24,000 nucleotides of DNA, taken from Pseudomonas sp. PDNC002 (GTDB lineage Bacteria > Pseudomonadota > Gammaproteobacteria > Pseudomonadales > Pseudomonadaceae). Of this stretch, positions 422 through 16,985 are shown piece after piece. The translations under genes and the position numbers were made by a program. The stretch's first letter is position 1; every line of letters starts with the position of its first letter. Under the pieces are notes generated by a model. It was not told the origin of the DNA and made no database searches. It worked only from the letters and a program-made list of their open reading frames with translations. The stretch lies in NCBI RefSeq assembly GCF_016919445.1, contig NZ_CP070356.1:3575502-3599501 (forward strand). The letters are read 5' to 3'.

Positions 422-1015
422 TCAGGAGTTGCCGGCCAGTGCCGGAGCGCTGGGCGGTTCGTCATGCAGCTCGCGCTGCCAGGCCAGCAGGCCGTAGATC
501 GCCAGCACCACGAAGCCGGCGTAGAGCCCGGCGGTGAGGTACAGCGCCTTGTAGAGGAAGACCCCGGTGTAGAGCACGTCGAGGATGATCCACAGCCACC
601 AGCTGGCGACGTATTTGCGCGCCGCCCAGAAGCTCGCCACCAGGCTGAAGGCGGTCAGCGCGGCGTCCATCCAGGGCAGGGCGGCGTCGGTGTGGGTGTG
701 CATCGCCCAGCCCAGGGCGAAGGCGCCCACGGCACCGGCCAGGCAGCTGGTGATAGCGGTGGAGAGGGGCAGGCGTTCGACGCGCACCTTGCCGTGGTCG
801 CTGCCACCCTTGCTCCATTGCCACCAGCCGTAGAACTGCAGGACCACGAAGACCAGTTGCAGGAGCATGTCGGAGTAGAGCTTCACGCTGAAGAAGATCC
901 ACGCGTAGAGCAGCACCGCCACCACGTTCACCGGCCAGCACCAGCGGATGCGCCGGGCGGTGAGCCAGACGCCGAGCACGTTGACGATCACCGCGATGAT
1001 TTCCAGAGCAGACAT
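422..1015 (-). CDS. pnuC: PnuC-family nicotinamide riboside (or related vitamin/nucleoside) transporter
   Basis: The 197-aa protein is polytopic and hydrophobic. It has a PnuC-like Trp-rich motif (LQLVFVVLQFYGWWQWSKGG) and a second half-repeat (SFWAARKYVASWWLWIILDVLY). ATG start at 1015, with GAGG RBS upstream. It begins 11 nt after the TBDR stop. Confidence 0.82.
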   Translation of the reverse strand: MSALEIIAVIVNVLGVWLTARRIRWCWPVNVVAVLLYAWIFFSVKLYSDMLLQLVFVVLQFYGWWQWSKGGSDHGKVRVERLPLSTAITSCLAGAVGAFALGWAMHTHTDAALPWMDAALTAFSLVASFWAARKYVASWWLWIILDVLYTGVFLYKALYLTAGLYAGFVVLAIYGLLAWQRELHDEPPSAPALAGNS

Positions 1016-1026
1016 TCGCGCTTACC

Positions 1027-3198
1027 TCAGAAGTTGACGCTCGCCGTCAGGCGAGCCGTACGCGGCGCACCCTGGAACAGGTAGCCGTCGCCAAAATATT
1101 CACCGACATCGCGCCAGTAGCGCTTGTCGAACAGGTTGTCGACGCTCAGCCGCAGCACGGTCGGGTAGTCGCCGATGCGTGTGCTGAAGCGTGCGCCGGC
1201 GTCATACACGGTGTAGCCGCCGGCCTCTACTGCGCCATCGCGGTCGGCATACTTGGCGCCGCTGTAGCGTGCCGCGCCCAGCAGCGAAAGCCCCGGCACT
1301 TCGGCCAGCGCGTAGTCCGCCTGCAGGCTTGCGCGCAGGCGCGGGACGTTGATCGCCTGGTGGCCTTCGTAGTCGTCCGTGCCGCTGTTCACCACCCGCG
1401 AACGGATCGCCGCGAGGCTGCCGCTCAATTGCAGCGTGGAGGTTACCCGGCCACTGGCGGACAACTCCAGCCCGCTGTTCTTCTGCTGGCCCTGCTGCAC
1501 GTAGGTGAAGGTACCGTCGCCGTTGGGCCGGGCGAACTGGTAGGCCTGGTGGATCTGGAACAGCGCGGCGCTCCAGTCGAAGCCGGCCAGCTCCTGCTTG
1601 ATGCCGAACTCGACCTGGCGTGAGGAGGTAGGCGCCAGGGTGTCGCCGGCGTTGCTGGCGAACCACGGAGCCTCGCCGCCCAGGGACAGGCCCTTGCTGT
1701 AGCTGCCGTAGATCGAGATGTCCGCACGCGGCTTGAAGATCACCGCGCCGTTGGGCAGGAATTCCGCGCGGCGGGTATGCCGGGTGGTGTCGCCGTCGCT
1801 GTCGAAGGTGCGCTCGTCCAGGCGCACCTGGCGTCCGCCCAGCACGACCTGCCATTGCTCATTGAAGGAGATGCGGTCGCTGGCGAACAGGCCGTACTGG
1901 CGGCTGTCGAGGTGGCGATAGCTGTGGCCGGGCTCGCCGTCGAAGGGCTCCACGGCGCCGATGCCGGTGTAGATGTTGCCGGTGCCGACCCACTCGTTGA
2001 GCTCCGGGCGGCTGTCCAGTACACGGCGGAAGGCCGAGGTGCCGATAGTCAGCTCGTGGCGCAGCCAGCCGGTGGCGAACTGGCCGTGCAGGGCGGCTTC
2101 CAGTTCGTCGTTGCGGCGAGTGTCGTCGGGGCTGCGGAAGTCGTAGAGGTCGTAGTCGCCTTCCGGGCTGAAGTAGTTGGGCACCGCCGAGTCGGCGCAA
2201 CTCGCCGCACCATAGCAGCCCCAGGGGAAGGCGCTGTAGTCGTCGATCACCACGCGGCTGCGCGAGGCGCTGAGCGTGCCTGTCCAGGCGTCGTTGAAGC
2301 GGTATTCGAAGCGCGTGTTGAGGTTGAGCGATTCGATGCGTACCGGGTCGGCCCAGCTCTGGTAGCCGATACGGTCGTGCGGGTCGATGTCGTGGGGCAG
2401 CTGCGTACCGCCGAGCAACTGGTAGCCCGGAGCGGAGGGTTGGCGGCGGTTCTGGTACTCGGCGTCGAATTGCCAGAGCGCGTTGGGTGAGAGGTTCCAG
2501 TCCAGTGCCAGGGAGGCGAAGTCGCGTTGGCCGTCGGTGTGGTCGATGTAGGAGCGCAGGTCGTCGTGGGCGAGGTTCACCCGAACGCCGACGGTCTGCT
2601 CGCTGTCCAGCCAGGCACCGACGTCGGTGGCGACATAGCGGCCGCCTTCATCGTCGGTACCGAGGGTCACCGAGCGCACGTCCTGCGGGCGCTTGGTGAC
2701 GTAGTTGATCACGCCGCCCGGCTCGGACACGCCGCTCTGCAGGCCGGACAGGCCCTTTAGCACCTCGACCTGTTCCTTGTTCTCCAGCGCCACGTTCTGC
2801 TCGCCGGTGATGGTGCGGCCGTTGATCTTGTAGCTGCTGGCGGAGTTGAGCGAATAGCCGCGGATCTCGAAGTTCTCGTAGTAGCCCACCGGTGCGTAGG
2901 CCTCGCCGGTGGAGGCGTCGTTCTTCAGCACGTCGCTGAGCAGGCGCGCCTGCTGGTCCTTGAGCAGCGCCTGGTTGAATACCAAGATGGAGGCGGGCGT
3001 ATCGAGCAGCGGGGCTTCGCCGAAGCCACCGACCGAAGCGCGGCCGCTGGCGTAGCTCTCGGTGTCGTGGCCGATCACCGTCACGGTGTCCAGGGTTGCT
3101 GCGTCTTCGGCGTGGCCGGGGCCGCTGGCCAGCAGTACGGCCAGGGTCAGCAGGCTGAGGGGAAATCGCGTGCGCGCGGGGCGCGGCAGGTACTGCAT
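1027..3198 (-). CDS. TonB-dependent outer-membrane receptor (siderophore-receptor-like subfamily)
   Basis: 723 aa. Signal peptide: LLTLAVLLASGPGHA/EDA. Plug-domain motifs: DTVTVIG and VEVLKGLSGLQSGVSEPGGVINYVTKRP. The long beta-barrel ends in the typical terminal aromatic (LTASVNF). AGGAG RBS before ATG 3198. I saw no Fur-box-like sequence upstream. Confidence 0.92.
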   Translation of the reverse strand: MQYLPRPARTRFPLSLLTLAVLLASGPGHAEDAATLDTVTVIGHDTESYASGRASVGGFGEAPLLDTPASILVFNQALLKDQQARLLSDVLKNDASTGEAYAPVGYYENFEIRGYSLNSASSYKINGRTITGEQNVALENKEQVEVLKGLSGLQSGVSEPGGVINYVTKRPQDVRSVTLGTDDEGGRYVATDVGAWLDSEQTVGVRVNLAHDDLRSYIDHTDGQRDFASLALDWNLSPNALWQFDAEYQNRRQPSAPGYQLLGGTQLPHDIDPHDRIGYQSWADPVRIESLNLNTRFEYRFNDAWTGTLSASRSRVVIDDYSAFPWGCYGAASCADSAVPNYFSPEGDYDLYDFRSPDDTRRNDELEAALHGQFATGWLRHELTIGTSAFRRVLDSRPELNEWVGTGNIYTGIGAVEPFDGEPGHSYRHLDSRQYGLFASDRISFNEQWQVVLGGRQVRLDERTFDSDGDTTRHTRRAEFLPNGAVIFKPRADISIYGSYSKGLSLGGEAPWFASNAGDTLAPTSSRQVEFGIKQELAGFDWSAALFQIHQAYQFARPNGDGTFTYVQQGQQKNSGLELSASGRVTSTLQLSGSLAAIRSRVVNSGTDDYEGHQAINVPRLRASLQADYALAEVPGLSLLGAARYSGAKYADRDGAVEAGGYTVYDAGARFSTRIGDYPTVLRLSVDNLFDKRYWRDVGEYFGDGYLFQGAPRTARLTASVNF

Positions 3199-3310
3199 GG
3201 AACGCTCCTGAAAATCGCCGGGGCGTGCGCCGGGAATGCACGGGGCTGAGCCCCTCCCGCGCGAAACGGATGGCCTTGGATGTGAAACGTGATTGCCCGT
3301 GGGCGGGCTG

Positions 3311-4186
3311 TCAGGCCGGAGCTGCTCCGGTGGTCAATGGCAGGGAGGGCTCGGCGGCCCACTCCTGCAGCGAGCCGTCGTAGATCGCGACTCGGGTTTC
3401 CCCGGCCAGCGTCAGGGCCAGCGCGAGGGCAGCGGCGGAGATACCGCCACCGCAGTACAGCAATAGCGGCGGCTCGGCCTGTCTTAGCCCGCTGAGGGCT
3501 TCGCTCAGTGCCGCGCCGCGCCGGTAGCGGCCGTCGTCGTCGAACAGGCTGCGCGCCGGTAGGTTGCTGCTGCCGGGAATGTGCCCACGGCGGGCGTAAC
3601 GGGTGACGGCGCTGCCGTCGAAGAGGGCGGCGGACAAGGCGCAGACCAGTGTGCCCGGTGCTTCTCCCGCGACGACTTTCCCCACGCCGTGGCGGTCGAT
3701 CCAGAACCCATCGAGGTAGCGCGTGGCGGCGGATAATGTTCCCGTGCGTACGCTGGGTTCATCGCCTTTCTCCAGCGCTAGGCCAGCCGCAATCCAGGCG
3801 CGCAATCCGCCATCGAGGACCGCTGCCGCGATGCCGAGGCTGCGCAGCATCCACCACAGGCGTGCGGCCCAGAAGCCGTCACTGCGGTCGTAGATCACGA
3901 TCAGCGAGTCGTCGTGGACGCCCAGTCGTTGCAGGGAATCCAGGGCCGATCGGGCATCCGGCAGGGCGAAGCTGAAAGACGCCTGCGGATCGACCAGCTC
4001 GCCCAGCAGATCCGCGTGGCGAGCGCCGCGAATGTGCCCGGCGAGCCAGCCGGCCTTGCCGGATTCGACGCGATAGTCGCCATCGAATTCAGGCGCCGCC
4101 AGTTCCACGCTGGCATCCAGCAGGCACAGGCGCGGGTCGTCCAGCGCGGTGGCCAGCCAGCCTACGGTGACCAGGGGTTCGCGCAT
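3311..4186 (-). CDS. Tandem-rhodanese sulfurtransferase (thiosulfate/3-mercaptopyruvate sulfurtransferase-like)
   Basis: 291 aa. The N-terminal VTVGWL...LLDAS motif and the C-terminal active-site loop LLLYCGGGISAA are typical of two-domain rhodaneses. The ATG at 4186 lies 1 nt after the stop of the upstream kinase gene. Confidence 0.8.
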   Translation of the reverse strand: MREPLVTVGWLATALDDPRLCLLDASVELAAPEFDGDYRVESGKAGWLAGHIRGARHADLLGELVDPQASFSFALPDARSALDSLQRLGVHDDSLIVIYDRSDGFWAARLWWMLRSLGIAAAVLDGGLRAWIAAGLALEKGDEPSVRTGTLSAATRYLDGFWIDRHGVGKVVAGEAPGTLVCALSAALFDGSAVTRYARRGHIPGSSNLPARSLFDDDGRYRRGAALSEALSGLRQAEPPLLLYCGGGISAAALALALTLAGETRVAIYDGSLQEWAAEPSLPLTTGAAPA

Positions 4187-4187
4187 C

Positions 4188-5333
4188 TCAGTTCACCTTA
4201 GCGGCCAGTTGGCGAAGGTGATTCAGCAGGCGCTGGCCTTCGGCTTCGAGGAACCAGCGGGTGTGGCCGATCAGGTAATTGTCATAGGCCAGCGAAGCGC
4301 TCTCGGCCGAGCCGAGGATGCCGTGGAAGTAGATGACCTCGGACAGCGCGAAATCCGTGTGCACCAGTGGCAGCAGCGCGGCCAGCGCGAGCAGATCGCC
4401 GCGGCGCAGAGGGCGCACGCTGGTGTAGCCCTGCAGCAGGGCGTCCAGCGCATCGAGGTCGGCGACGGCGGCGCGTCCCTGGTCCAGCTCCAGCCAGGGC
4501 ACCAGATTGCGCTCGATGGCGGTGGCCAGGTCGAAGAGGGCGAAGGTGCGATCGCTCAGTCCGAAGTCCAGCACAGAGACCACCTGCGCCTGCGGGCCAT
4601 CCTCGCTCCACAGCAGGTTCGAGGCGTGCCAGTCGTTGTGGGTCCAGAGTGCCGGCTGACGTTGCAGGTAGGGCAGCAGCTCCCGTTGCAGCGGCAGGTG
4701 CAGTTCGCTGAGCGTTTCCTTCCAGGGGCGTGCTTGCAGGTACTCCGCCAGGGCGGGTGCTTGGTCAAATGTCGCTTCGATGGCGGCCAGCGGGTCCTGC
4801 GCGCCGAACAAGTCGAGGTTGCTGACCAGTACGCCGGCGCTGCGCGAAGGCGCGGCGAAACCTTCGGCGGCACGGTGCAGTTTCGCCAATGCAGCGCCAG
4901 CGGCGAAGGCGTGGGCGTTGTGCTGGAAGGGCGTCCAGGACAGCGCATCGCGGTACAGGTCCAGCCCTTCCGCCTTCTGGTGAACTTCGTAGGTCCAGCC
5001 GCCCAGTTCGATAGCGCTGCGGCCGTATCGATCCCGCAGTACCTGCGCGACCGGCGCACCATGTCGGGCCAGGTGATCGAGGAAGGCGTGTTCTTCCGCC
5101 AGCCAGTCAGCCGTGCGCACGCTGGGGTGATGGCGCTTGACGAACAGCGGGCCGCTGGCGGTTTCCACCAGCGCGGCGGCGGAGAAGGGCCGCGGGCTGT
5201 GCCAGGCCAGGCGCGCCTCGTCGCCGGCCTGCGGGAAGTCTTTCAACAGCTCGGCGACCTCCGCTTCGGTCAGCGCTGGCCAGTCGGCCTCCACCGGCTC
5301 CAGGCCCATGCCGTGGCTCAGGCGTTTTGTCAT
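4188..5333 (-). CDS. APH/choline-kinase-fold phosphotransferase (homoserine-kinase-type-II / thiamine-kinase-like family)
   Basis: 381 aa. Brenner-type catalytic motif LWTHNDWHASNLLW followed by VLDFGLSD (the DFG-like metal-binding Asp). ATGA start/stop overlap with the upstream THI5-like gene (5330-5333). Confidence 0.8.
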   Translation of the reverse strand: MTKRLSHGMGLEPVEADWPALTEAEVAELLKDFPQAGDEARLAWHSPRPFSAAALVETASGPLFVKRHHPSVRTADWLAEEHAFLDHLARHGAPVAQVLRDRYGRSAIELGGWTYEVHQKAEGLDLYRDALSWTPFQHNAHAFAAGAALAKLHRAAEGFAAPSRSAGVLVSNLDLFGAQDPLAAIEATFDQAPALAEYLQARPWKETLSELHLPLQRELLPYLQRQPALWTHNDWHASNLLWSEDGPQAQVVSVLDFGLSDRTFALFDLATAIERNLVPWLELDQGRAAVADLDALDALLQGYTSVRPLRRGDLLALAALLPLVHTDFALSEVIYFHGILGSAESASLAYDNYLIGHTRWFLEAEGQRLLNHLRQLAAKVN

Positions 5334-6250
5334 GCTGGATTCTCCACTTGCCAGGCATTGCTGGTGGCGCCGCGCCAGATGTCCGGGGCGCGCAGCACAC
5401 CATGTTCATGCAGCCACTGGGCATAGGGCTGCAACAGTTCTTCGCGCTGTTCGCCCCAGCGGCCGTCGTGCAGCCAGCTGGGCGCGATGCGCCGCAGCGA
5501 TTCTGCCAGCATCTCGTGGGGAAAGTAGGGAATGGTGCGTTCATAGACCGGCAGTGCGGCTTCCGGATCGGCTGCCGCCGCGAGGAACCCCTGCGCGGTG
5601 ACGGCGAGGAAGCGCCGGGCGATCTCGGTGTTGGCGTCGAGCCAGTCTTCGCGGGCACCCAGCAGATAGCTGTGGTAGGGCGGCGCGCCGATCTCGTCCA
5701 CCGGCAGCACCACGCGCCGTTCGTTGGGGATCGAGCTGGGCAGCAGCGCTTCCCAGGCCCAGTAGCCGCCGAAGCTGGCGTCGGCCAGGCCGGCGGCCAG
5801 GTCTTCGGGGCGCAGCTCGCGGAAGCCGGCATCCACCAGTTCCACCGCATCGGGATCGCCGCCATCCTGGCTCACCAGATGCCGCACCATGGCCAGGCCG
5901 CGCGGGGTCGGGTTGAGCGCCAGGCGCTTGCCCTGCAGGTCGCGGGGCCGGCGGATGCCGCTGTCGGTGAGGGTCTGGATCGATTCCAGGCCGCGATGGT
6001 TGATGGCGGCCACGCCGATCAGCGGCTGGCCCAGTTCTCGGCGTACCAGCAGGCGGTTGCTGGGGAACACGCCGAAGGCAGCGTCGCCGCGCAGCAGGTG
6101 CTCCAGAGTGTCGCCGTGGTAGGGGTCGTGCACCACCAGTTCGACCTCCAGCCCCGCCTCGCGGTACCAGCCGCGTTCACGGGCGAGGTAGAAACCGGCC
6201 GAATTGGGCCAGGGGTGGAAGTATTCGAGCATGACCCTCAGGGCGAACAT
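5330..6250 (-). CDS. NMT1/THI5-like (periplasmic-binding-protein fold) protein without signal peptide
   Basis: The ORF 5330..6265 begins with TTG. The ATG at 6250 (MFALRVMLEYFHPWPNSAGFYLA...) has a GGAG 9 nt upstream and is the preferred start. The sequence resembles cytosolic THI5/NMT1/SsuA-like proteins (GLEVELV..., LQGKRLALNPTPRG, GGYWAWE). There is no N-terminal signal sequence. Confidence 0.7.
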   Translation of the reverse strand: MFALRVMLEYFHPWPNSAGFYLARERGWYREAGLEVELVVHDPYHGDTLEHLLRGDAAFGVFPSNRLLVRRELGQPLIGVAAINHRGLESIQTLTDSGIRRPRDLQGKRLALNPTPRGLAMVRHLVSQDGGDPDAVELVDAGFRELRPEDLAAGLADASFGGYWAWEALLPSSIPNERRVVLPVDEIGAPPYHSYLLGAREDWLDANTEIARRFLAVTAQGFLAAAADPEAALPVYERTIPYFPHEMLAESLRRIAPSWLHDGRWGEQREELLQPYAQWLHEHGVLRAPDIWRGATSNAWQVENPA

Positions 6251-6314
6251 GAAACCTATCTCCAAAACGGCCGGCGGCCGATGACTGCGATGGGGCGTAT
6301 TCCACGGGAGAATA

Positions 6315-8084: not shown

Positions 8085-8264
8085 ATGATCGAGATACCGA
8101 TAACGTCGTGTGTGGCAGCCGTGTCTGCGATTGCGCTGACTGGTCTGTCCGTGAATGTTTCCAGGTTGCGGATGCGCTATCGCGTCGGCCTTGGTCACGG
8201 TGGTCAGAAGGCGCTGCAGCTGGCCGTGGCGCCGGTCAATCTTTTCCTCAAAATTATCAATTAA
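8085..8264 (+). pseudogene. Truncated YecN-like MAPEG-family membrane protein (only the N-terminal ~50 residues are recognisable)
   Basis: ATG 8085 is preceded by AGGGGG. The translation is MIEIPITSCVAAVSAIALTGLSVNVSRLRMRYRVGLGHGGQKALQLAV... This matches the YecN/MAPEG N-terminus (..VVRLRMQYRV.YGDGG...LQ.AIR.HGN..EY). The expected HGNxxEYxP motif and the last ~70 aa are missing. The frame runs into the G-free tract and stops at 8262-8264. Confidence 0.6.
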
Positions 8265-8877
8265 ATTTCATAACTATCGACTCTATAAATAATTTTTAAC
8301 TTCATTTTAATTATTGTCTTTCTTATTTTTATTTTTCCATCCTAATTCCATTTACATCCATCTATATTCTCATCATTTAAATATATATTTATAAAATCAT
8401 CATCTCAACCATACAACACCTCTACCTTATAATCCATCATTCTCCCAATATATTCTATTTAAAGATTATATATTTATATTCCTACTCTCTAAACCTATTT
8501 TTCTTTAACATCTATATTTCATAACACAATTTCATTTAATAACTATATATTAATTCCCCAATTATTTATATAATAACTTTTACAATATCTACATTATTCA
8601 AATTATACTCATATCCAATTTCATCCCTCATCAAAATTAACATTTCATAAATACATACTCATTATTCTTTTATTCATAATAACCCCACCCAAAAAAATAA
8701 AACCAAAAAAAAACCTCCCCAAAAAAAAAAAACACCCCCAAAAAAAAAAAAAAATATAAATAAATATTTTCAAATTAAATTTTTATATATATATACAATT
8801 ATACCCTATATATATATATCCCCCCCCCCCCCCCCCCCCTATATAAATATATATACCCCCCCCACCCCCCCCCAATT
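8238..8877. other. G-depleted AT/C low-complexity tract with terminal homopolymer runs (artefact or anomalous insertion)
   Basis: I count only three G on the + strand between 8238 and 8877 (at 8279, 8316 and 8464). The flanks are typical high-GC sequence. Runs: A9 8705-8713, A12 8721-8732, A15 8740-8754, (TA)n around 8787-8819, C20 8820-8839, C8 8856-8863, C9 8865-8873. The tract contains no ORF, no terminal inverted repeats and no periodic repeat unit. Confidence 0.9.
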
Positions 8878-9226
8878 CGTATTTTCGTCGAGCGACGCAA
8901 CTGACCCTGCCACGCCGCGCCCCGGAGAGCGCTCCAGACACCTCGCACCCGAGAGCCCTCCCGAGTGCGAGCCCTCTCCGGATACACGAAGAACCTCCGC
9001 TGCCTACCTGAAAATCCGGCGACAGGCCGGGTTTCGCCCATCCGCGCCGCCTGGGCCGTTCGATGCGCCTGGGGCGGCGATTCGCGATGTCACGCCGAGT
9101 TGTTCAGGGCCCGCTTTGCCTGCGGGTCGCGCAGTGGCGCATGCCTTGCTCAAACCGCTGTGATACTTGCCGTTCCCACTCGCTCAGCATGGGCTTTCTA
9201 CACGGCGCTCAGGTTGACGAAATCCA

Positions 9227-9309
9227 TACAGATTTACATCCCTTGGTTGATTGATTAGGTTCGCCTTGTACCGCAGTTGATCAATATATTGATGGATAAT
9301 CAATGTGTT
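9227..9309. promoter_or_regulatory. AT-rich promoter region of the DUF1302 gene, with motifs shared with the 13816-13895 divergent promoter
   Basis: TACAGATTTAC (9227-9237), palindrome TTGATCAA (9277-9284), ATATATTGAT (9284-9293), inverted repeat ATTGAT-N5-ATCAAT (9288-9304) and ATCAATGTGTT (9299-9309). The same words recur at 13816-13895. Confidence 0.45.
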
Positions 9310-9398
9310 GATCGGCGACTTCGCCCAGGGCTGCTGTGCTGTGCCGGTCATCGAGAACCGGATTCTGCTCCCATAAGCACAATAACAAGGTGGAATAC

Positions 9399-11171
9399 GT
9401 GGAAAGAACCTTCTACCGCCGGCGCCTGCCCGTCGCGCTCGGCAGCCTCGTTCCTGCTCTTCTCGCATCCAGCGTCCAGGCGGTGACGTTCGAGGTCGGG
9501 GAGATCCAGGGGCAGTTCGACTCGTCCCTCTCCGTTGGCCAGAGCTGGGCGATGAATGATCCGAACCCGAACTTCATCAGCAAGGCCAATGGCGGACGCG
9601 GTGACTCCCAGACCACCGACGACGGCCGCTTGAATTTCAGGAAGGGCGAGACATTCTCGAAGATCTTCAAGGGGACGCACGACCTGGAATTGAAGTACGG
9701 CGACTGGGGGGCCTTCCTGCGAGGGAAGTACTGGTATGACTTCGAGCTGAAGGACGGGCACCAGCACCTCTACGACATCCAGGACAACGGCCGTGATCAG
9801 GCGGCGCGCTCCTCGGGTGCGCAGTTCCTCGACGCCTTCGTCTACCGCAACTACGACCTGGCCGGGCAGCCCGGCTCGGTCAGGCTGGGCAAGCAGGTCG
9901 TGAGCTGGGGGGGCAGTACCTTCATCCAGGGTGGCATCAACAGCATCAACCCGCTGGATGCCAACGCGCTGCGGCGTCCGGGTTCCGAGTTGAAGGAGGG
10001 GCTGATCCCGGTGCAGATGATCTATCTGCAACAGAGCCTCAGCGATGCCGTCAGCGTGGAAGGTTTCTACCAGCTGAAATGGCAGGGCACCGTGGCCGAT
10101 AACTGCGGGACCTTCTTCGCCAGCTCCGATCTTCCAGCCAAGGGCTGCGACGACCGCTACGTGCTCCAGGGCAAGGACATCAAGCCCGGCGCCTCGGACA
10201 ACAGCGGGCAGAACGGCAACACCATTTTCCTGCCGCGCGGACCGGACCGCGAACCGCGCGATGGCGGGCAGTACGGCCTGGCGCTGCGGTGGTTCGTGCC
10301 GGAGCTCAACGACACCGAGTTGAGCCTCTACTGGATGAATTATCACAGCCGCATGCCGATCGGCAGTTCGACGATGACCACCGCCAACCCGTTTACCGCG
10401 CCGCGTTTCGGTGCCGCGTCGGCGACCTATTTCCTGGAGTACCCCGAGGACATCCGCCTCTATGGCCTGAGCTTCAGCACCAACATCGCCGGCGCGGCTG
10501 TGGAAGGCGAGATCAGTCACCGACCGAATATGCCGCTGGGCTTCGACGACCTGATCTACGCCACGCTGCGCCTGTCGCCCGTCGTGCCGACGCCCATCGA
10601 GAACTCCGGTATCCCCGGCGACACCATCCATGGCTACAAGCGGGTGCCGTTCACCCAGGTCCAGACCACCGTCACCAAGACCTTCGACCAGGTCATGGGC
10701 GCGAGCCGCCTGACGCTGGTTGGCGAGGTTGGCTACAACCACATCTCCGGGATCGACGACGGCACCTACGGCCACCTGCGCTATGGCCGAGCCAGTCCTT
10801 TCGGGCCCGGCGAGTATTACGGCGCCAACGGCAATGACCTCTGCACCACGCTGCTCAGCGGTCGCCCCGAGTACTGCAACAACGACGGCTTCTACACCCG
10901 CAATTCCTGGGGATACCGCCTGCGCTCGGCGCTCACCTACAACGGCGTCATCGGCGGACTCGACCTCACGCCGAACCTGGCCTGGTCCCATGACGTCCAG
11001 GGTTACGGGACGAACTTCACCGAGGGCGGCAAGGCCGTCAGCGTCGGGCTGAACGCCGTTTACCTGTCCAAGTACAACGCCAGCATCAGTTACACCGATT
11101 TCTTCGGTGGCAAATACACCACCAACACCGATCGCGACTTCCTGAGCGTCAGTTTCGGCGTCAGCTTCTGA
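9399..11171 (+). CDS. DUF1302-family outer-membrane beta-barrel protein
   Basis: The track ORF (9336) starts at a GTG with no RBS. The GTG at 9399 follows AAGGTGG by 5 nt and gives a signal peptide (VERTFYRRRLPVALGSLVPALLASSVQA/VTFEVG). DUF1302 hallmark motifs are present: DDGRLNF.KGE, LGKQVVSWGGSTFIQGGINSINPLDANALRRPGSELKEGLIPV, and the C-terminal DRDFLSVSFGVSF. Confidence 0.88.
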   Translation: MERTFYRRRLPVALGSLVPALLASSVQAVTFEVGEIQGQFDSSLSVGQSWAMNDPNPNFISKANGGRGDSQTTDDGRLNFRKGETFSKIFKGTHDLELKYGDWGAFLRGKYWYDFELKDGHQHLYDIQDNGRDQAARSSGAQFLDAFVYRNYDLAGQPGSVRLGKQVVSWGGSTFIQGGINSINPLDANALRRPGSELKEGLIPVQMIYLQQSLSDAVSVEGFYQLKWQGTVADNCGTFFASSDLPAKGCDDRYVLQGKDIKPGASDNSGQNGNTIFLPRGPDREPRDGGQYGLALRWFVPELNDTELSLYWMNYHSRMPIGSSTMTTANPFTAPRFGAASATYFLEYPEDIRLYGLSFSTNIAGAAVEGEISHRPNMPLGFDDLIYATLRLSPVVPTPIENSGIPGDTIHGYKRVPFTQVQTTVTKTFDQVMGASRLTLVGEVGYNHISGIDDGTYGHLRYGRASPFGPGEYYGANGNDLCTTLLSGRPEYCNNDGFYTRNSWGYRLRSALTYNGVIGGLDLTPNLAWSHDVQGYGTNFTEGGKAVSVGLNAVYLSKYNASISYTDFFGGKYTTNTDRDFLSVSFGVSF

Positions 11172-11181
11172 GGAACAAACA

Positions 11182-12540
11182 ATGAGAAATACGATTCCGG
11201 CAGCGGGCCTGCTGTCTTTCTGCCTGTCTTTCATCAGCCCTGTTTCCCTGGCCGCGGTCGATGCGGCCAAGGCGGCAGAGCTGGGCTCCATACTGACGCC
11301 GGTCGGCGCCGAGCGTGCGGGCAACGAGGCGGGAACGATCCCGGCCTGGACGGGCGGGTTGGCGCCTGACGCGGGGCAGGTCAGGGACGGTACACACGGC
11401 GATCCTTTCGCCGGCGAGAAGCCGCTGTTCGTCATTACCCCGGCTACCCTCGAGCGCTACAAGGAGCGCCTGAGTCCCGGCCAGCTCGCGCTGTTCCAGC
11501 GTTACCCGGACACCTACCGCATCCCGGTGTACGCCAGCCATCGCACGGCGGCCTGGCCGGACAGCGCGTATGCCGCCGCCAAGCGCAACGCCACCAGCAC
11601 AGAGCTGGTCGCCGGTGGTAATGGCCTGAAGGACTACCAGGCGCCGCTGGCATTCCCGATTCCGCGCAACGGCCTGGAAGTGATCTGGAACCACATTACC
11701 CGTTACCGGGGTGGCAGCTTCGATCGCGAGACCAGCAGCTACCTGGTGACGCCCAACGGCGACTACTCCTGGAAGACCGAGCGTGACCGCCTGGCCTACA
11801 GCAACCAGCTCACCGACTACGACCCGGAGCGCTCGAAGAACATCCTCTACTACTTCACCTCGCTGAATATCGCACCGGCGCGGGATGTGGGCGATGTGCT
11901 GCTGGTCCACGAGACCCTGGACCAGGTCGCCGAGCCGAGAATGGCCTGGCAGTACAACGCCGGCCAGCGCCGGGTGCGTCGCGCACCCCAGGTGGCCTAT
12001 GACAGCCCCGGCCCCGGCAACCTGCGCACCAACGACCAACTGGACATGTTCAACGGCTCGCCCGATCGCTACGACTGGCAGCTGGTGGGCAAGCGCGAGC
12101 TCTACGTTCCCTACAACAGCTTCCGCCTTGCCGACCCGGCCAACAGCCCGGATAAACTGGTGCAGAAGGGGCACATCAACCAGAACCTGACGCGCTACGA
12201 ACTGCACCGCGTCTGGGAGGTGATCGCCACCCTGAAGCCGGGCCAGCGCCACGTCTATGCCAAGCGGCACCTGTACATCGACGAGGATACCTGGACCATT
12301 CTCGAAGCCGATCACTACGACAATCGCGGGACGCTGTGGCGCGTTTCCGAGAACCACACGCTGCCTTTCTACGACCAGAAAGTGGTGATCAGCGCAGGGG
12401 AGATGACCTACGACCTGACCTCCGGGCGCTATCTCGCCAACGGCATGTTCAACCAGATCAAGGATGCTTACCGCTTCGGCCTCAAGGCCAAGACTTCCGA
12501 CTTCACGCCCGCCGCCCTGCGCACCATCGGCATTCGCTGA
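11182..12540 (+). CDS. DUF1329-family (LolA-like / outer-membrane lipoprotein-sorting-like) periplasmic protein
   Basis: 452 aa. Signal peptide (LSFISPVSLA/AVD). DUF1329 hallmarks: LTPVGAERAGNEAGTIPAWTGGL, FPIPRNGLEVIWNHITRYRG, ELYVPYNSF. GAGGA RBS. It starts 10 nt after the DUF1302 stop. Confidence 0.88.
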   Translation: MRNTIPAAGLLSFCLSFISPVSLAAVDAAKAAELGSILTPVGAERAGNEAGTIPAWTGGLAPDAGQVRDGTHGDPFAGEKPLFVITPATLERYKERLSPGQLALFQRYPDTYRIPVYASHRTAAWPDSAYAAAKRNATSTELVAGGNGLKDYQAPLAFPIPRNGLEVIWNHITRYRGGSFDRETSSYLVTPNGDYSWKTERDRLAYSNQLTDYDPERSKNILYYFTSLNIAPARDVGDVLLVHETLDQVAEPRMAWQYNAGQRRVRRAPQVAYDSPGPGNLRTNDQLDMFNGSPDRYDWQLVGKRELYVPYNSFRLADPANSPDKLVQKGHINQNLTRYELHRVWEVIATLKPGQRHVYAKRHLYIDEDTWTILEADHYDNRGTLWRVSENHTLPFYDQKVVISAGEMTYDLTSGRYLANGMFNQIKDAYRFGLKAKTSDFTPAALRTIGIR

Positions 12541-12566
12541 AGCCAGGAAAGCAGCGGCAGGGAAGC

Positions 12567-12600
12567 AGGCCCGCCTCGTGAGAGGCGGGCCTTGTCGTTT
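12567..12600. terminator. Bidirectional hairpin terminator between convergent genes
   Basis: AGGCCCGCCTC (12567-12577), loop GTGA, GAGGCGGGCCT (12582-12592), followed by TGTCGTTT. This is an 11-bp perfect GC-rich stem between the DUF1329 stop (12540) and the regulator stop (12600). Confidence 0.6.
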
Positions 12601-13790
12601 CAGTCCGGCAGGGTGCCGGTGTAGCGGGCGCGCGGACGCAGCAGCGGGTACTGGTGATACTGCTCGCTGGCATGGGCAATCCAGCCAATGGCACGGCCGA
12701 CGCCGGCGAGGGCGATCTCCTGGCCCTGCAGGCCCAGTTTGCGGCCGACGAAGGTCAGCAGGAGGATGAAGTCCATGGGCTGCCCGGTCAGCTCCTCGGC
12801 GACCGTGGCTGCCTCCAGCAGGCTGCGGAACTCCGCATCCTTGGCGAACAGCCGATGCAGGCTCTGCAGCAGGCAGGTCGCGCGGGGATCGCTTTCGCCG
12901 TGCTGATTGGAGCCAAAGCCCAGGATGGCGCCATCCTCGCGGAAGCGCTGGACGATCGGGTCCGCCGGATGGCGGGCGGTGCAAATGTCGTCCAGCAGGC
13001 GTGCCACCGACTCGTTCCTGCCGTAGGCCAGGTGCCGGCCCCGTGACGTGGCGATGCCCACAATCGCGGCGTAGTAGGGCGTTATGCCGGTGTTCGCGGC
13101 CGCCCTCACGCTGTAGGTGGTGGGGTCGAGTTCATGGTCGATGGACAGGATCAACACCTGGCGGATCAGGTCGGCCAGCGCCTCGTTCACCCCCAGCGAT
13201 TCGGCGATGAACCGATGCAGGGGACGGTCATCGGGCACAGCTGCGCCGACCAGCAACGCAGCGAACCAGCGAACCACATCGACGCCGGTGCGGGCATAGC
13301 CTTCCACCGAGAGGTCGTGGGCGCGCGGGTTCTCACGCTCCAGCAGCGGGAACAGAGCGATCAGTTTTTCTCCCACGGCCAGGTCGCCCAGCGCCTTGAG
13401 CAGGGCGCCGGTGCCTTTCGGACGACGCGGCAGCGGCGCGTCGAAGACGCCTTCCGCCTGCCACATCAGTTCCGCTACCGCCTCGACGCTGGCGCTCGCG
13501 GCCAGTTGCGTCACGTCGTGCCCCCGGTAGTACAGCCCCTTGTCGGTCAGCAGCGTGATCGAGCTCTGCGCGCCAACGCGGGGAGCGTCGGTTCCGGATC
13601 CTGCTGTTGGCTTGAGCTTGCGCAGGCGTTCGATATCCGCCGCCCAGTACTTACGGCTGCGCGAGCCCTCGACCTTGAGCGAGCGGATGTTCTTCCGGCT
13701 GACGTAGGCATAAAGCGTCGGAAGGCTGATGCCGAGCGCGCTGGCGGCCTCGTCCGCGCTGAGGTAGAGATCGTCTTCTGGGGTGGACAT
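12600..13790 (-). CDS. Excisionase/MerR-type HTH fused to a citrate-synthase-like domain (putative ligand-sensing transcriptional regulator)
   Basis: 396 aa. The N-terminus LSADEAASALGISLPTLYAYVSRKNIRSLK is an HTH_17/excisionase-type DNA-binding motif. Residues ~75-396 align by eye with small citrate synthases (SITLLTDKGLYYRGHDVTQLA; LILSIDHELDPTTYSVRAAANTG; GFGSNQHGESDPRA; GRAIGWIAHASEQY; RPRARYTG). The catalytic GFGH motif reads GFGS. ATG 13790 has a GAGG RBS. Confidence 0.8.
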   Translation of the reverse strand: MSTPEDDLYLSADEAASALGISLPTLYAYVSRKNIRSLKVEGSRSRKYWAADIERLRKLKPTAGSGTDAPRVGAQSSITLLTDKGLYYRGHDVTQLAASASVEAVAELMWQAEGVFDAPLPRRPKGTGALLKALGDLAVGEKLIALFPLLERENPRAHDLSVEGYARTGVDVVRWFAALLVGAAVPDDRPLHRFIAESLGVNEALADLIRQVLILSIDHELDPTTYSVRAAANTGITPYYAAIVGIATSRGRHLAYGRNESVARLLDDICTARHPADPIVQRFREDGAILGFGSNQHGESDPRATCLLQSLHRLFAKDAEFRSLLEAATVAEELTGQPMDFILLLTFVGRKLGLQGQEIALAGVGRAIGWIAHASEQYHQYPLLRPRARYTGTLPD

Positions 13791-13815
13791 GGCGGCCTCG
13801 GATTGATGAATTTCG

Positions 13816-13895
13816 TACAGATTTACTATTTATGGGGGCCTATATATCTTGCTGTCAACATCAACAGAATACATATATTGATCAATGTATGTGTT
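13816..13895. promoter_or_regulatory. Divergent AT-rich promoter/operator region between the HTH-citrate-synthase-like regulator and the DUF1446 operon
   Basis: The 123-bp intergenic region (13791-13913) contains TACAGATTTAC (13816-13826), ATATATTGAT (13873-13882), the 10-bp perfect palindrome ATTGATCAAT (13877-13886) and ATCAATGT..TGTGTT (13881-13895). These are the same words as in 9227-9309. Confidence 0.5.
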
Positions 13896-13913
13896 CGCCA
13901 GACGGAGACACGC

Positions 13914-15278
13914 ATGGAAATTCGTGTTCTGGCGCCCAATGGCGCCATAGGCACCGGCTTCAAGGAAAGTTCGTTCGAGCGCGGGGTGTCGCTTGCCCCC
14001 CATGTGATTGCCTGTGACGCCGGTTCGACCGATTCGGGCCCGGCTTACCTGGGCAGCGGCAAGGCGCGGCTTTCCCGCGAAGCTTGCAAGCGCGACCTGC
14101 GCCTGCTCCTGCTGGCGCGTGACCGCTTGGGCGTTCCGCTGATCGTCGGGTCCTGCGGCACCAGCGGGAGGGACGCAGGGGTCAACTGGATGGCGGAGAT
14201 CGCGCTGGAGATCGCGGACGAGGAGGGGCTCAACTTCCGCCTCGCGCTGATCTACTCCGATCAGGACGGCGAGTACCTGAAGCAGCGCCTGGCCGATGGA
14301 CGCATTCAGGCGTTGCACCCGGCGCCGCCGCTCGACGAGCAGGTCATCGAACGCAGCCATGTGGTCGGCATGATGGGAACCGAGGCGCTGTCCGAAGCAC
14401 TGGATCAGGGCGCCGAGGTGATCCTGGCGGGCCGTGCCAGCGACTCGGCGCTGTTCGCCGTGGTGCCCGAGCGCCTCGGCGCCGATCGCGGGTTGGTCTG
14501 GCACGCGGCGAAGACCATCGAGTGCGGCGCGGCCTGCTGTGTCACGCCGGCTGCCGATGGCCTGATCGCGTATATCCGCGAGGACCATTTCGAGATCGAG
14601 CCGCTGGACCCGCAGGCGCGCGTGACGCCCTTGTCCATCGCCGCGCACACCCTCTACGAGAACGCCAACCCCTTCCTGCTCACCGAGCCGGCCGGCATCG
14701 TGGACACCGAGCACGCGGTATATACCGCGACGAGCGAGCGCAGCGTGCGGGTGAGCGGTTCGAAGTTCCATCCGGCACAACGCTACAGCATCAAGCTGGA
14801 AGGTTCCGAGCCGGTGGGCTTCCAGTCGGTGATCATCGGCGGTATCCGCGACCCGAAAATCTTCCTGGGCCTGGATCGGTTGATCCCGATGGCGAAGCAG
14901 TATTTCCAGCAGCGCGTCGCCCAGTTGTTCGGAGGCCGGCTTGGCCCCGAGGACTACGACATCAGCTTCCGCAGTTATGGTCGCGGCGCGGTGATGGGTG
15001 AACTGGAGGTCGAGCGCGACAGCGTGCCGATCGAAGTCGGGGTGCTGATCACCGTCACGGCACCGACGCAGGAGCTGGCGAGTAAGATCGCCACCTTCGT
15101 CAGCCATGTCAGCGCGCACCTGCCGGTGCCCGGCTACGAAGGCATCATCAGCACCATCGCCTATCCGTTCTCGCCGCCGTACCTGGAACGAGGCGCCGTC
15201 TACCGGTTCAGTCTCAACCACGTGCTGTTCCCCGACTCGCCCAGCGAAATGTTCCGTCGCAAGATGATCGAGGTGTAA
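13914..15278 (+). CDS. DUF1446 / AtuA-family protein (acyclic terpene utilisation AtuA N-terminal domain homologue), function unknown
   Basis: The track ORF (13134..15278) is open far upstream. The ATG at 13914 follows GGAGA by 5 nt and gives MEIRVLAPNGAIGTGF...ACDAGSTDSGPAYLG...IVGSCGTSG..., which is typical of DUF1446. The upstream part of the track ORF is the antisense of the regulator gene. Confidence 0.8.
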   Translation: MEIRVLAPNGAIGTGFKESSFERGVSLAPHVIACDAGSTDSGPAYLGSGKARLSREACKRDLRLLLLARDRLGVPLIVGSCGTSGRDAGVNWMAEIALEIADEEGLNFRLALIYSDQDGEYLKQRLADGRIQALHPAPPLDEQVIERSHVVGMMGTEALSEALDQGAEVILAGRASDSALFAVVPERLGADRGLVWHAAKTIECGAACCVTPAADGLIAYIREDHFEIEPLDPQARVTPLSIAAHTLYENANPFLLTEPAGIVDTEHAVYTATSERSVRVSGSKFHPAQRYSIKLEGSEPVGFQSVIIGGIRDPKIFLGLDRLIPMAKQYFQQRVAQLFGGRLGPEDYDISFRSYGRGAVMGELEVERDSVPIEVGVLITVTAPTQELASKIATFVSHVSAHLPVPGYEGIISTIAYPFSPPYLERGAVYRFSLNHVLFPDSPSEMFRRKMIEV

Positions 15279-15281
15279 TCC

Positions 15282-15593
15282 ATGACTCAACTCTTCGAAC
15301 TCTGCAGCCTGATCCGCTCCAAGAACGCCGGCCCGTTCATGCTCACCTTCGACCTGATGTTCGCATCGGCGGAGAGTTACCAGCGCGCCAAGCGGACCCA
15401 GCCCATCACCCGTGAGCTGATCTCGCGCATTTATCGCCAGCCGGAGGACGACATCACGCTGGTTTACCACGACGCGGCACAGGCGATAAAAATCTCCTTT
15501 CCCAGGCCGGTCTTCCAGGGCGAGCTGCACGACAGCGATTGCTACGGCGGTCAGCAATACGTGCCGCTGATGGGCATCACGGTCGCCGAATGA
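15282..15593 (+). CDS. DUF4387 protein (equivalent to the AtuA C-terminal ferredoxin-like domain)
   Basis: 103 aa: MTQLFELCSLIRSKNAGPFMLTFDLMF...AIKISFPRP. It starts 3 nt after the DUF1446 stop, with GAGGTG RBS. In full-length AtuA proteins this domain is fused to DUF1446, so the two genes read as a split AtuA. Confidence 0.75.
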   Translation: MTQLFELCSLIRSKNAGPFMLTFDLMFASAESYQRAKRTQPITRELISRIYRQPEDDITLVYHDAAQAIKISFPRPVFQGELHDSDCYGGQQYVPLMGITVAE

Positions 15594-15630
15594 TCACCTT
15601 CGATTCGCACAACAAGAATAAGGAATGAAC

Positions 15631-16920
15631 ATGGCCTGGGTCGGTTTTGCCATGGTGTTGACCTTCATGTACCTGATCATGAGCCAGCGGCTGTCCGCGG
15701 TCGTGGCGCTCATCCTGGTACCGGTCTGCTTTGCGGTTGCCTGCGGCTTCGGGCCGCAAACCGGAGGCATGGTGCTGGACGGCGTGCGTCAGCTCGCGCC
15801 CACGGCGCTGATGCTGATGTTTGCCATCCTGTTCTTCTCGATCATGTATGACGCCGGGTTATTCGAGCCGGCGGTGCGCCGGATCGTGCGGGCCGTGGGC
15901 AACGATCCGCTGCGGGTCAGCGTGGGAACCGCGGCCTTGTCGGCACTCATCTCCCTGGATGGCGACGGCTCGACCACGGTCCTGGTGGTCGTCACGTCCA
16001 TGCTGCCGGTCTATCGGCGCCTGGGCATGAACCCGCTGATTATCGCGACGCTGGTGTTGCTGACCAATACATCCATCAACCTGGTGCCCTGGGGCGGGCC
16101 CACGGCACGCGCGGCGAGCGCGCTGCACGTGGATGCCATGCAGGTCTTCCAGGGACTGGTTCCGACCATGATCGCCGGCATCGCTTTCGCCTTCCTGGCG
16201 GCGGTCTGGTTCGGCCTCCGGGAGCGCCGGCGCCTGGGATGGACGCCGCAGTCAGGGGAGGCGAATCTTTCCGAGGAGATCCTCGCCGAGGTCCGCGAAA
16301 CCCATCGCCCGAAGCTGTTCTGGGTCAACCTGGCGCTGACCATCGGCCTGGTGTTGTCCATGGCGCTCGGGCTGGGGCCGCTGCCGGTGCTGATGATGGT
16401 CGCCTTCGCCCTGGCATTGCTGATCAATTACCCGAGGCTGGATCAGCAAAAGGCGCGGATTGCCGCGCATGCCGACAATGTCCTCAACGTGCTGGCGCTG
16501 ATATTCGCCGCGGGCGCCTTCACCGGCATCCTGGCAGGCACCGGGATGGTGGACGCCATGTCGGGCAAGTTCCTGGCCGTGGTTCCCGAAAGCGCGGGCC
16601 CGTACCTGAGCGTCATCACGGCCTTTGCCAGCGTTCCGTTCACCTTCTTCATGTCCAACGACGCCTTCTACTTCGGCATCCTGCCGGTGCTGGCGAAAAG
16701 CGCTGCGCAATATGGCGTCGACCCGGTGCTGGTGGCCCGCGCATCGGTCCTCGGCCTGCCGGTCCATGCGCTCAGCCCGCTGGTGGCGGCGGGGTACCTG
16801 ATGAGCGGGTTGCTGAAGGTCGAGGTCGGCGCGCTCCAGCGGTTCTCCCTGAAATGGGCGCTTGCCAGCTCGCTGGTACTGATCGCCGCGGCCCTGGCAA
16901 GCGGCGCCATCCTGGCCTAG
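15631..16920 (+). CDS. CitMHS-family (citrate-divalent-metal:H+ symporter family) transporter
   Basis: About 429 aa, polytopic. The N-terminus MAWVGFAMVLTFMYLIMSQRLSAVVALILVPVCFAV and the internal LPVYRRLGMNPLIIATLVLL and NDAFYFGILPVL match the CitM/CitH family. The track start (15625) has AAGGA immediately abutting it. The ATG at 15631 has proper 6-nt spacing. Confidence 0.85.
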   Translation: MAWVGFAMVLTFMYLIMSQRLSAVVALILVPVCFAVACGFGPQTGGMVLDGVRQLAPTALMLMFAILFFSIMYDAGLFEPAVRRIVRAVGNDPLRVSVGTAALSALISLDGDGSTTVLVVVTSMLPVYRRLGMNPLIIATLVLLTNTSINLVPWGGPTARAASALHVDAMQVFQGLVPTMIAGIAFAFLAAVWFGLRERRRLGWTPQSGEANLSEEILAEVRETHRPKLFWVNLALTIGLVLSMALGLGPLPVLMMVAFALALLINYPRLDQQKARIAAHADNVLNVLALIFAAGAFTGILAGTGMVDAMSGKFLAVVPESAGPYLSVITAFASVPFTFFMSNDAFYFGILPVLAKSAAQYGVDPVLVARASVLGLPVHALSPLVAAGYLMSGLLKVEVGALQRFSLKWALASSLVLIAAALASGAILA

Positions 16921-16963
16921 GCAAGAGCACTTACCGTCTCACTCCAGTGCTGCTCCACCATTG

Positions 16964-16985
16964 ACCCGCTTCGGCGGGTTTTTTT
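16964..16985 (+). terminator. Rho-independent terminator of the DUF1446-DUF4387-CitMHS operon
   Basis: ACCCGC-TTCG-GCGGGT stem-loop (16964-16979) followed by a T7 run, 44 nt after the transporter stop. Confidence 0.75.

Follow-up and report, generated by a model that had tools for sequence, protein, structure and literature searches.

The locus described here raises the question of what a bacterium does with a protein pair of the AtuA/DUF1446 and DUF4387 families when the pair is encoded beside a citrate-type symporter and a citrate-synthase-like regulator. It lies in a stretch of 24,000 nucleotides (nt) of Pseudomonas sp. PDNC002 (contig NZ_CP070356.1, positions 3,575,502 to 3,599,501), hereafter the window, which has about 65% G+C and whose nearest relatives belong to the Pseudomonas citronellolis group. 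Beyond one recently solved citramalate lyase, the large AtuA/DUF1446-DUF4387 family is without assigned functions. We consider it somewhat probable that the locus is an inducible module for the import and cleavage of a citrate-like 2-hydroxy-polycarboxylic acid. In the proposed mechanism, a symporter of the CitMHS family would import the acid, probably as a complex with a divalent metal. The AtuA/DUF1446 and DUF4387 proteins, termed A and B, would form a heteromeric carbon-carbon lyase of the CmlAB type, independent of coenzyme A (CoA) and acyl carrier protein (ACP), releasing the carboxymethyl arm of the substrate as free acetate and leaving a 2-oxo acid (pyruvate from citramalate, oxaloacetate from citrate). 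A divergently encoded regulator would bind the acid or its product in the pocket of an inactive citrate-synthase domain and, via two kinds of upstream box, control both the lyase operon and a DUF1302/DUF1329 operon. The initial annotation of this DNA had proposed a tricarboxylate-conversion module. A carboxylate module linked to an importer and a regulator is upheld by our analysis, whereas the word tricarboxylate is unproven, the nearest known substrate, citramalate, being a dicarboxylate.

The operon consists of three genes on one strand, running from 13914 to 16920 and closed by a terminator. Gene A (13914-15278, + strand) encodes the large putative lyase subunit of 454 residues (AtuA, PF07287, E 6e-16), and gene B (15282-15593, +), which starts 3 nt after the stop codon of A, encodes the small putative subunit of 103 residues (DUF4387, PF14330, E 6e-33). 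The CitMHS gene (15631-16920, +; PF03600, E 1e-33) has an open reading frame (ORF) open from 15625. The ATG at 15631 is preceded by a properly spaced AAGGA ribosome-binding site and yields 429 residues, as annotated in homologues; the gap to gene B is 37 nt from this ATG, or 31 nt counted from the opening of the ORF. An intrinsic terminator follows at 16963-16985 (+), with the stem-loop GACCCGC-TTCG-GCGGGTT and a T-run. The regulator gene (12600-13790, - strand; 396 residues) is transcribed divergently. Three co-directional genes with gaps of 3 and 37 nt, a terminator and a citrate-synthase-like regulator had all been described in the initial annotation, and all were found in place. Given their strong profile matches, A, B and CitMHS are real genes, not chance ORFs. 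A candidate sigma-70-like promoter of the operon (13852-13879, +; CTGTCA, 16 nt, TATATT) was assigned by consensus match only, and an Rfam search of the window gave no RNA elements.

The enzyme pair and its characterised relative

Proteins A and B match both chains of PDB entries 9ERQ and 9EVF, "citramalate lyase, subunit A (cmlA)" and "subunit B (cmlB)", for the enzyme of Raoultella planticola (Berg laboratory). The match of A to CmlA has a phmmer E-value of 3e-89 and covers residues 3-439, and that of B to CmlB has an E-value of 4e-23. A Foldseek search with an AlphaFold model of A alone (mean predicted local distance difference test score, pLDDT, 81), a type of search that the initial annotation had suggested for the modelled heterocomplex, led to chain A of 9EVF at a template-modelling (TM) score of 0.88 (E 9e-50); besides 9EVF, no solved fold in the PDB reached E 1e-3. 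Entry 9EVF, a "citramalate lyase - ADP - pyruvate complex", was released on 2025-10-08. A preprint that uses CmlAB describes the enzyme as splitting free citramalate, with pyruvate and acetate as the products. The earlier statement that no role had been established for the AtuA family has to be revised in so far as this source describes a characterised relative. The accompanying proposal of a free-acid substrate outside terpene and CoA metabolism gains support, the sole characterised homologue being described there as cleaving a free hydroxy acid. In an earlier paper (PMC4682846) the same group had remarked that enterobacteria carry, downstream of methylaspartate ammonia-lyase, a DUF1446 gene without explanation. 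Within the literature covered by our search, which did not extend to the primary CmlAB paper, DUF4387 was not mentioned and AtuA was not linked to citramalate or CitMHS.

Fused family members of 608-619 residues carry both the AtuA/DUF1446 and the DUF4387 domain, which indicates that A and B act together and agrees with the initial view of the two as halves of one protein. What unites the family would be a reaction that eliminates acetate from an acid with a 3-hydroxy-3-substituted carbon. At an E-value of 1e-3 the family comprises 2,229 clusters at 50% identity. From it, 190 members were aligned and compared by a neighbour-joining tree and by average-linkage clustering. Window A and 80 relatives from genomes (81 sequences) formed one clade, apart from the CmlA cluster. 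A position was considered conserved when it was kept in at least 97% of the window clade, in at least five of six CmlA-cluster sequences and in at least 85% of the remainder. Window A retains 36 such family-wide positions, including D40, R174, D177, H197, K200, E203, C204, Y248, E249, E296, E374 and H436. At ten positions the window clade has a fixed residue that differs from the one in the CmlA cluster (window clade/CmlA cluster: C81/A, G89/H, M153/Q, A199/G, A207/I, C208/A, N250/K, Y270/F, Q304/R and H398/S); a sequence comparison of these clade-specific positions does not discriminate between citrate and citramalate.

A special case of the import-and-cleave proposal is that the pair is a citramalate lyase, as CmlAB is, and that CitMHS imports citramalate, an acid of plants and microbes, for cleavage to pyruvate and acetate. 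We regard this as possible although doubtful. The products would enter central metabolism without a further enzyme, and conservation of the window clade at 55-95% between Pseudomonas and Streptomyces suggests one substrate throughout. In uncultured bacteria (loci L028-L044 of our set) members of the same clade lie beside an aconitase/isopropylmalate-dehydratase-family pair, a maleate-isomerase/Amdase-like gene and an acetyl-CoA synthetase gene, a context that fits conversion of C5 dicarboxylates (mesaconate/citraconate) to citramalate. However, window A lies in a separate clade from CmlA, with 37-38% identity to it, and we know of no CitMHS member that carries citramalate. Citramalate cleavage is the sole activity characterised in the family, as far as the preprint describes it, yet the mesaconase and methylaspartate-pathway genes of CmlA-type loci (PMC4682846; a Klebsiella plasmid) are absent nearby: among the window ORFs there is no gene for mesaconase, class I fumarase or the methylaspartate pathway.

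Two further observations concern the pair. The conjugative resistance plasmid pHNLC3 (IncFII/IncR) of Klebsiella pneumoniae (L170) carries a CmlA-like pair (56% identity to CmlA) behind a LysR regulator gene, together with several aldehyde/alcohol dehydrogenase genes and a class I fumarate hydratase gene. Weak Foldseek matches of the A model include the PII-like nucleotide-binding proteins GlnK and CPII, and in its C-terminal part the large subunit may form a nucleotide-binding regulatory domain.

Importer, regulator and shared upstream boxes

The symporter scores 117 bits with PF03600 (cut-off 31.9) and 516 bits with NCBIfam TIGR00784 (cut-off 259.7); a structure search found no solved homologue. 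Characterised CitMHS members carry their substrate as a divalent-metal complex. CitMHS genes were found beside AtuA/DUF4387 pairs in P. gingeri, P. citronellolis, Pseudomonas sp. AAC, Stutzerimonas, P. aeruginosa, Alloalcanivorax, Caulobacter and Phenylobacterium. When loci of CitMHS homologues at 59-66% identity were examined, three of four held the pair. These loci also contain genes for a PrpD-family dehydratase, OprD, a D-2-hydroxyacid dehydrogenase and esterases/lipases, and in Phenylobacterium for an Iso_dh-family dehydrogenase.

The regulator combines a predicted N-terminal helix-turn-helix (HTH) domain of the MerR/excisionase type with a citrate-synthase domain. In the structural model, residues 4-58 form a helical and winged domain and residues from about 75 to 396 a complete citrate-synthase fold, which matches complete PrpC/GltA structures at Foldseek TM scores of 0.64-0.74, the best match being a 2-methylcitrate synthase. 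The HTH profile scores fall just below their cut-offs (HTH_17, 25.7 bits against 27; MerR_1, 20.8 against 21.6), and homologues are annotated with PF12728, PF00376 and PF13411. Alignment to E. coli GltA shows the catalytic His305 replaced by Ser and His264 by Ala, with the Asp362 region ambiguous; neither histidine position is conserved within the regulator family. The domain scores far below all enzyme cut-offs, the best NCBIfam model, TIGR01800, giving 85.7 bits against 421. GltA Arg314, Arg387 and Arg407, which bind the carboxylates of oxaloacetate and citrate, correspond to window R303, R366 and R385 and are invariant in 17 family members. The protein would thus be a sensor of a citrate-, oxaloacetate- or malate-like di- or tricarboxylate moiety. 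Public databases label its homologues "citrate synthase", including in P. aeruginosa, and relabelling them would remove a false paralogue of the tricarboxylic acid (TCA) cycle from metabolic models of that and other species. Such a sensor would be a rare reuse of a complete enzyme fold as the ligand domain of a transcription factor.

Adjacent to the regulator gene are genes for a DUF1302 outer-membrane protein (9336-11171, +; PF06980, E 2e-170) and a DUF1329 (LolA-like) outer-membrane protein (11182-12540, +; PF07044, E 6e-144). Two candidate operator boxes are shared by the promoter regions of the DUF1302 gene and gene A. Box 1 occurs upstream of the DUF1302 gene at 9212-9237 (+) as GGTTGACGAAATCCATACAGATTTAC, and between the regulator gene and A at 13801-13826 (+) as GGATTGATGAATTTCGTACAGATTTAC. 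Box 2 consists of ATATATTGAT-type repeats at 9276-9297 (+), which stand to box 1 in the same order and at similar spacing as upstream of A, where box 2 is the palindrome GAATACATATATTGATCAATGTATGTGTTC / ATATATTGATCAAT at 13867-13896 (+), overlapping the predicted -10 hexamer. The palindrome is kept in the Pseudomonas loci L001, L002, L003 and L009. The string TACAGATTTAC occurs twice in the window, at both box 1 sites, against 0.06 occurrences expected. Box 1 is present at the equivalent promoters in L001, L002, L003, L009, L081, L082, L084 and L085, and adjoins the regulator gene in L086 and L087. Across 1.7 Mb of fetched loci, CAGATTTAC is nearly confined to the equivalent promoters: it lies upstream of both DUF1302 and A in Pseudomonas and Stutzerimonas, of DUF1302 alone in P. 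aeruginosa, and beside the regulator gene in Cupriavidus and Alloalcanivorax. The DUF1302 gene adjoins the regulator or A-B genes in Pseudomonas and Acetobacteraceae loci.

Judged from these sequence motifs, the DUF1302 gene is probably co-regulated with the putative lyase operon, and the whole would form a single regulon that includes the DUF1302/DUF1329 outer-membrane pair. Roles proposed for DUF1302/DUF1329 proteins in the literature are cell-envelope export and the use of esters (growth of P. putida on fatty esters); the shared boxes would link these enigmatic proteins to a defined, putative regulatory partner. A bolder proposal is that the HTH-citrate-synthase fusion represents a new class of one-component regulator, with an entire but catalytically dead citrate synthase as sensor, governing DUF1302/DUF1329, CitMHS and the lyase, and that the lyase is the first CoA- and ACP-independent enzyme to cleave citrate or an analogue of it (hydroxycitrate, an alkylcitrate or a metal-citrate chelate). 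We hold this combination to be unlikely. If true, aerobic soil bacteria would gain a route bypassing the TCA cycle for such acids, or a means of releasing bound metals.

Conservation, history and the choice of substrate

A scan of one genome per species gave 80 loci with an A homologue at 55-76% identity, from Pseudomonas, Acetobacteraceae, Steroidobacteraceae, Paraburkholderia, Streptomyces and relatives, uncultured marine bacteria and two Promethearchaeota bins. Neighbouring genes were taken from our own gene calls (starts trimmed and approximate), clustered, and annotated with Pfam and NCBIfam. Gene B directly follows A in all 80 loci, and a transporter gene lies at most four genes away in 76 of 81 loci when the window is included. 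The transporters are of the major facilitator superfamily (MFS) in most Proteobacteria and Streptomyces, of the ATP-binding cassette (ABC) type in Streptacidiphilus, Catenulispora and Hyphomicrobiaceae, and of the EamA family in the marine bins. An HTH-citrate-synthase regulator is encoded in 15 proteobacterial loci and a GntR/FCD regulator in 36; an acetyl-CoA synthetase gene is nearby in 18. In P. helleri the order is DUF1302-DUF1329-BNR-MMPL, A-B-MFS-hydrolase-MFS, regulator. An assignment of the neighbouring MFS proteins to the MHS-type citrate/2-oxoglutarate carriers was dropped, their best, though weak, score being with an aromatic-acid symporter model. CitMHS was also seen in four window-clade loci fetched separately, including P. 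citronellolis, Pseudomonas sp. AAC and Stutzerimonas nitrititolerans. The expected link of the pair to carboxylate importers is therefore conserved as regards importers and the citrate-synthase-like regulator (CitMHS loci, TctC in Cupriavidus, MFS or ABC elsewhere), while CitMHS itself is exceptional within the window clade. Two sources call for caution: the 2.9-Mb contig of L003, labelled Gordonia, carries a Pseudomonas-type locus with DUF1302/DUF1329 and is probably mislabelled or contaminated, and the pair at 60-61% identity in the Promethearchaeota bins (L025, L042) reflects transfer or a binning error.

Searching from the regulator gave a complementary picture. Four loci with regulator homologues at 48-61% identity (P. 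aeruginosa, Alloalcanivorax, Caulobacter, Cupriavidus) all contain an AtuA gene; three contain DUF4387, the gene in the fourth running off the end of the locus, and three contain CitMHS at 59-67% identity to that of the window. These loci often encode outer-membrane components too, namely a TonB-dependent receptor or a porin, of the OprD type or another, and on a Cupriavidus plasmid the regulator gene is followed by A-B and then by genes for two TctC binding proteins. A LeuC protein at the Alloalcanivorax locus was discarded as a cluster member; it passes the cut-off for true leuC and is probably encoded by a housekeeping gene. The enzymes at loci found through the regulator or CitMHS belong to other clades, 38-45% identical to window A, and at least three enzyme clades are involved; with enzymes so diverged across loci that share regulator and importer, the latter two are the better conserved. 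In soil metagenomes, regulators of at least 39% identity had the pair on the same contig in 15 of 27 cases, the exceptions being mostly short contigs, against none of 52 for those with 32-38% identity, which are parts of other systems.

Some arrangements seen in these searches stand apart. Distant HTH-citrate-synthase proteins of soil metagenomes (32-39% identity) that lack the pair are encoded head-to-head with a second citrate-synthase-like gene (L112, L113, L115, L117, L119-L121, L124, L126, L139, L141, L145, L147, L152, L154, L157, L161 and L167), in what appears to be a separate, unexplored system. In L005 (6810-8476 and 10001-11678), L110 and L171, two AtuA/DUF4387 pairs of different clades flank one regulator gene, which suggests two related substrates or two stereoisomers.

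The history of the locus can be read from its relatives. Window positions 9204-16919 are collinear with P. citronellolis and Pseudomonas sp. AAC at 86% nucleotide identity, in a block of DUF1302-DUF1329-regulator-A-B-CitMHS that ends at the CitMHS stop codon. The flanks on both sides are unrelated, so the block occupies a different chromosomal context in the window. Behind CitMHS, P. citronellolis and Pseudomonas sp. AAC retain what is left of a second DUF4387 gene (53-64 residues), and then come MFS and hydrolase genes; this remnant, between CitMHS and the MFS/hydrolase pair, lies at 10986-11180 in L081 and at 13020-13181 in L168. The Stutzerimonas copy (L082) has insertion sequence elements on its flanks and a truncated duplicate of the regulator gene.

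The signs of recent recombination in the gene order, the Pfam family name and the position of the closest relatives in the P. citronellolis group would all suit a pair acting on CoA-thioester terpene intermediates, as assumed for AtuA, with CitMHS adjacent by accident. We consider this very improbable. The absence of atu and liu genes, noted in the initial annotation, was confirmed among the major window ORFs (no carboxylase, acyl-CoA dehydrogenase, hydratase or HMG-CoA lyase), and geranyl-CoA/methylcrotonyl-CoA carboxylase, enoyl-CoA hydratase and HMG-CoA lyase were all absent from the annotated neighbour families of the 80 loci. Moreover, the triad of regulator, CitMHS and pair recurs with at least three enzyme clades, and the architecture is split as in CmlAB, unlike the fused AtuA of about 600 residues.

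Among the recurrent neighbours of related loci are alpha/beta-hydrolases, esterases, lipases, PrpD-family dehydratases, D-2-hydroxyacid dehydrogenases, an Iso_dh-family dehydrogenase and TauD dioxygenases. They would be explained if the substrate were a rarer citrate analogue, whether free or as an ester or lactone, such as hydroxycitrate or its lactones, 2-methylcitrate or longer alkylcitrates, homocitrate or itatartarate, and if the window held a trimmed version of a larger pathway. The DUF1302/DUF1329 genes, which share the boxes and are tied to growth of P. putida on fatty esters, and the 2-methylcitrate synthase as top structural match of the regulator point the same way. We nevertheless judge this explanation rather unlikely: none of these accessory genes is present in the window, and it is too unspecific for sequence tests.

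A new type of citrate lyase, independent of ACP and CoA, would take metal-citrate brought in by CitMHS to oxaloacetate and acetate, possibly freeing the chelated metal. Its chemistry would be identical to citramalate cleavage. With the citMHS citrate-symporter model the transporter scores double the cut-off, and the sensor domain is a citrate synthase with its citrate/oxaloacetate-binding arginines kept. Related loci add TonB-dependent receptors, OprD porins and TctC binding proteins, and a FecR/ECF-sigma (extracytoplasmic function) pair adjoins the Caulobacter cluster. On the other side, aerobes feed citrate straight into the TCA cycle, the specificity positions show no added positive charge relative to CmlA, and most window-clade members are paired with MFS proteins that resemble aromatic-acid symporters, not citrate carriers. 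Citrate as the substrate is, in our estimate, quite unlikely.

Several findings weigh against the broader proposal of a module that imports and cleaves a citrate-like acid. Window A falls outside the CmlA clade, and at 37-38% identity neither reaction nor substrate can be transferred outright from CmlAB. Relative to CmlA, the differences in the window clade amount to a loss of positive charge, not a gain (K254 to N, R307 to Q, H91 to G); with fewer basic residues at clade-specific positions, a more anionic substrate or an extra carboxylate would be unsupported by the sequence. The ADP held in 9EVF could indicate a more complex reaction. Among the 80 genome loci of the window clade, CitMHS occurs in P. 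gingeri only, MFS or ABC transporters and an alpha/beta-hydrolase being usual, and the DUF4387 remnant implies that recombination into an older cluster, A-B-MFS-hydrolase, gave rise to the A-B-CitMHS order. Finally, an aerobic pseudomonad can use citrate without a lyase.

Elsewhere in the window, 8236-8878 is a low-complexity stretch with almost no G (3 in 636 nt; the longest run without G is 8465-8878). Its poly-A and poly-C runs are long, and its G+C is 36% against 65% for the genome. It interrupts a small ORF starting at 8086 and has the look of an artefact of sequencing or assembly, or of filler, and not of biological sequence. At 422-6265 (- strand) are genes for a PnuC-type nicotinamide-mononucleotide transporter, a TonB-dependent receptor, a rhodanese, an APH-type kinase and an NMT1/THI5-like protein, unrelated to the operon.

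Comparison with known systems

The locus is a compact and widespread variant of four to six genes, whose importer, sensor and putative operators make testing unusually easy. Its enzyme pair resembles CmlAB in having two subunits from adjacent genes, an AtuA/DUF1446 protein of about 455 residues and a DUF4387 protein of about 105, in homology over the full length, and in an operon without CoA or ACP genes. It differs in context, which for CmlAB is methylaspartate ammonia-lyase, glutamate mutase and mesaconase, and in the window CitMHS and a citrate-synthase-like regulator. With AtuA of the Pseudomonas atuABCDEFGH cluster the pair shares the Pfam family, and the acetate elimination proposed for AtuA parallels the CmlAB reaction. 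AtuA is a single fused polypeptide (615 residues in Thauera), whereas window A and B are split. AtuA-type proteins presumably sit beside geranyl-CoA carboxylase and act on CoA esters, and the window pair is in no such setting.

The classical ACP-dependent citrate and citramalate lyases of the CitDEF type have the same proposed net reaction, from a hydroxy acid to a 2-oxo acid and acetate. They are without homology to the window pair, and the window contains no acyl-carrier subunit or CitC/CitG/CitX activation genes; a thioester cycle would not be expected for the pair. The symporter, well above the curated family cut-offs, resembles the Bacillus subtilis metal-citrate symporters CitM and CitH, yet it belongs to a proteobacterial subgroup whose 59-76% identical relatives lie mostly beside AtuA/DUF4387 pairs. 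The regulator keeps the whole fold and the three carboxylate-binding arginines of GltA and PrpC, and differs from these enzymes in its predicted N-terminal DNA-binding domain and in the replacement of the catalytic histidines.

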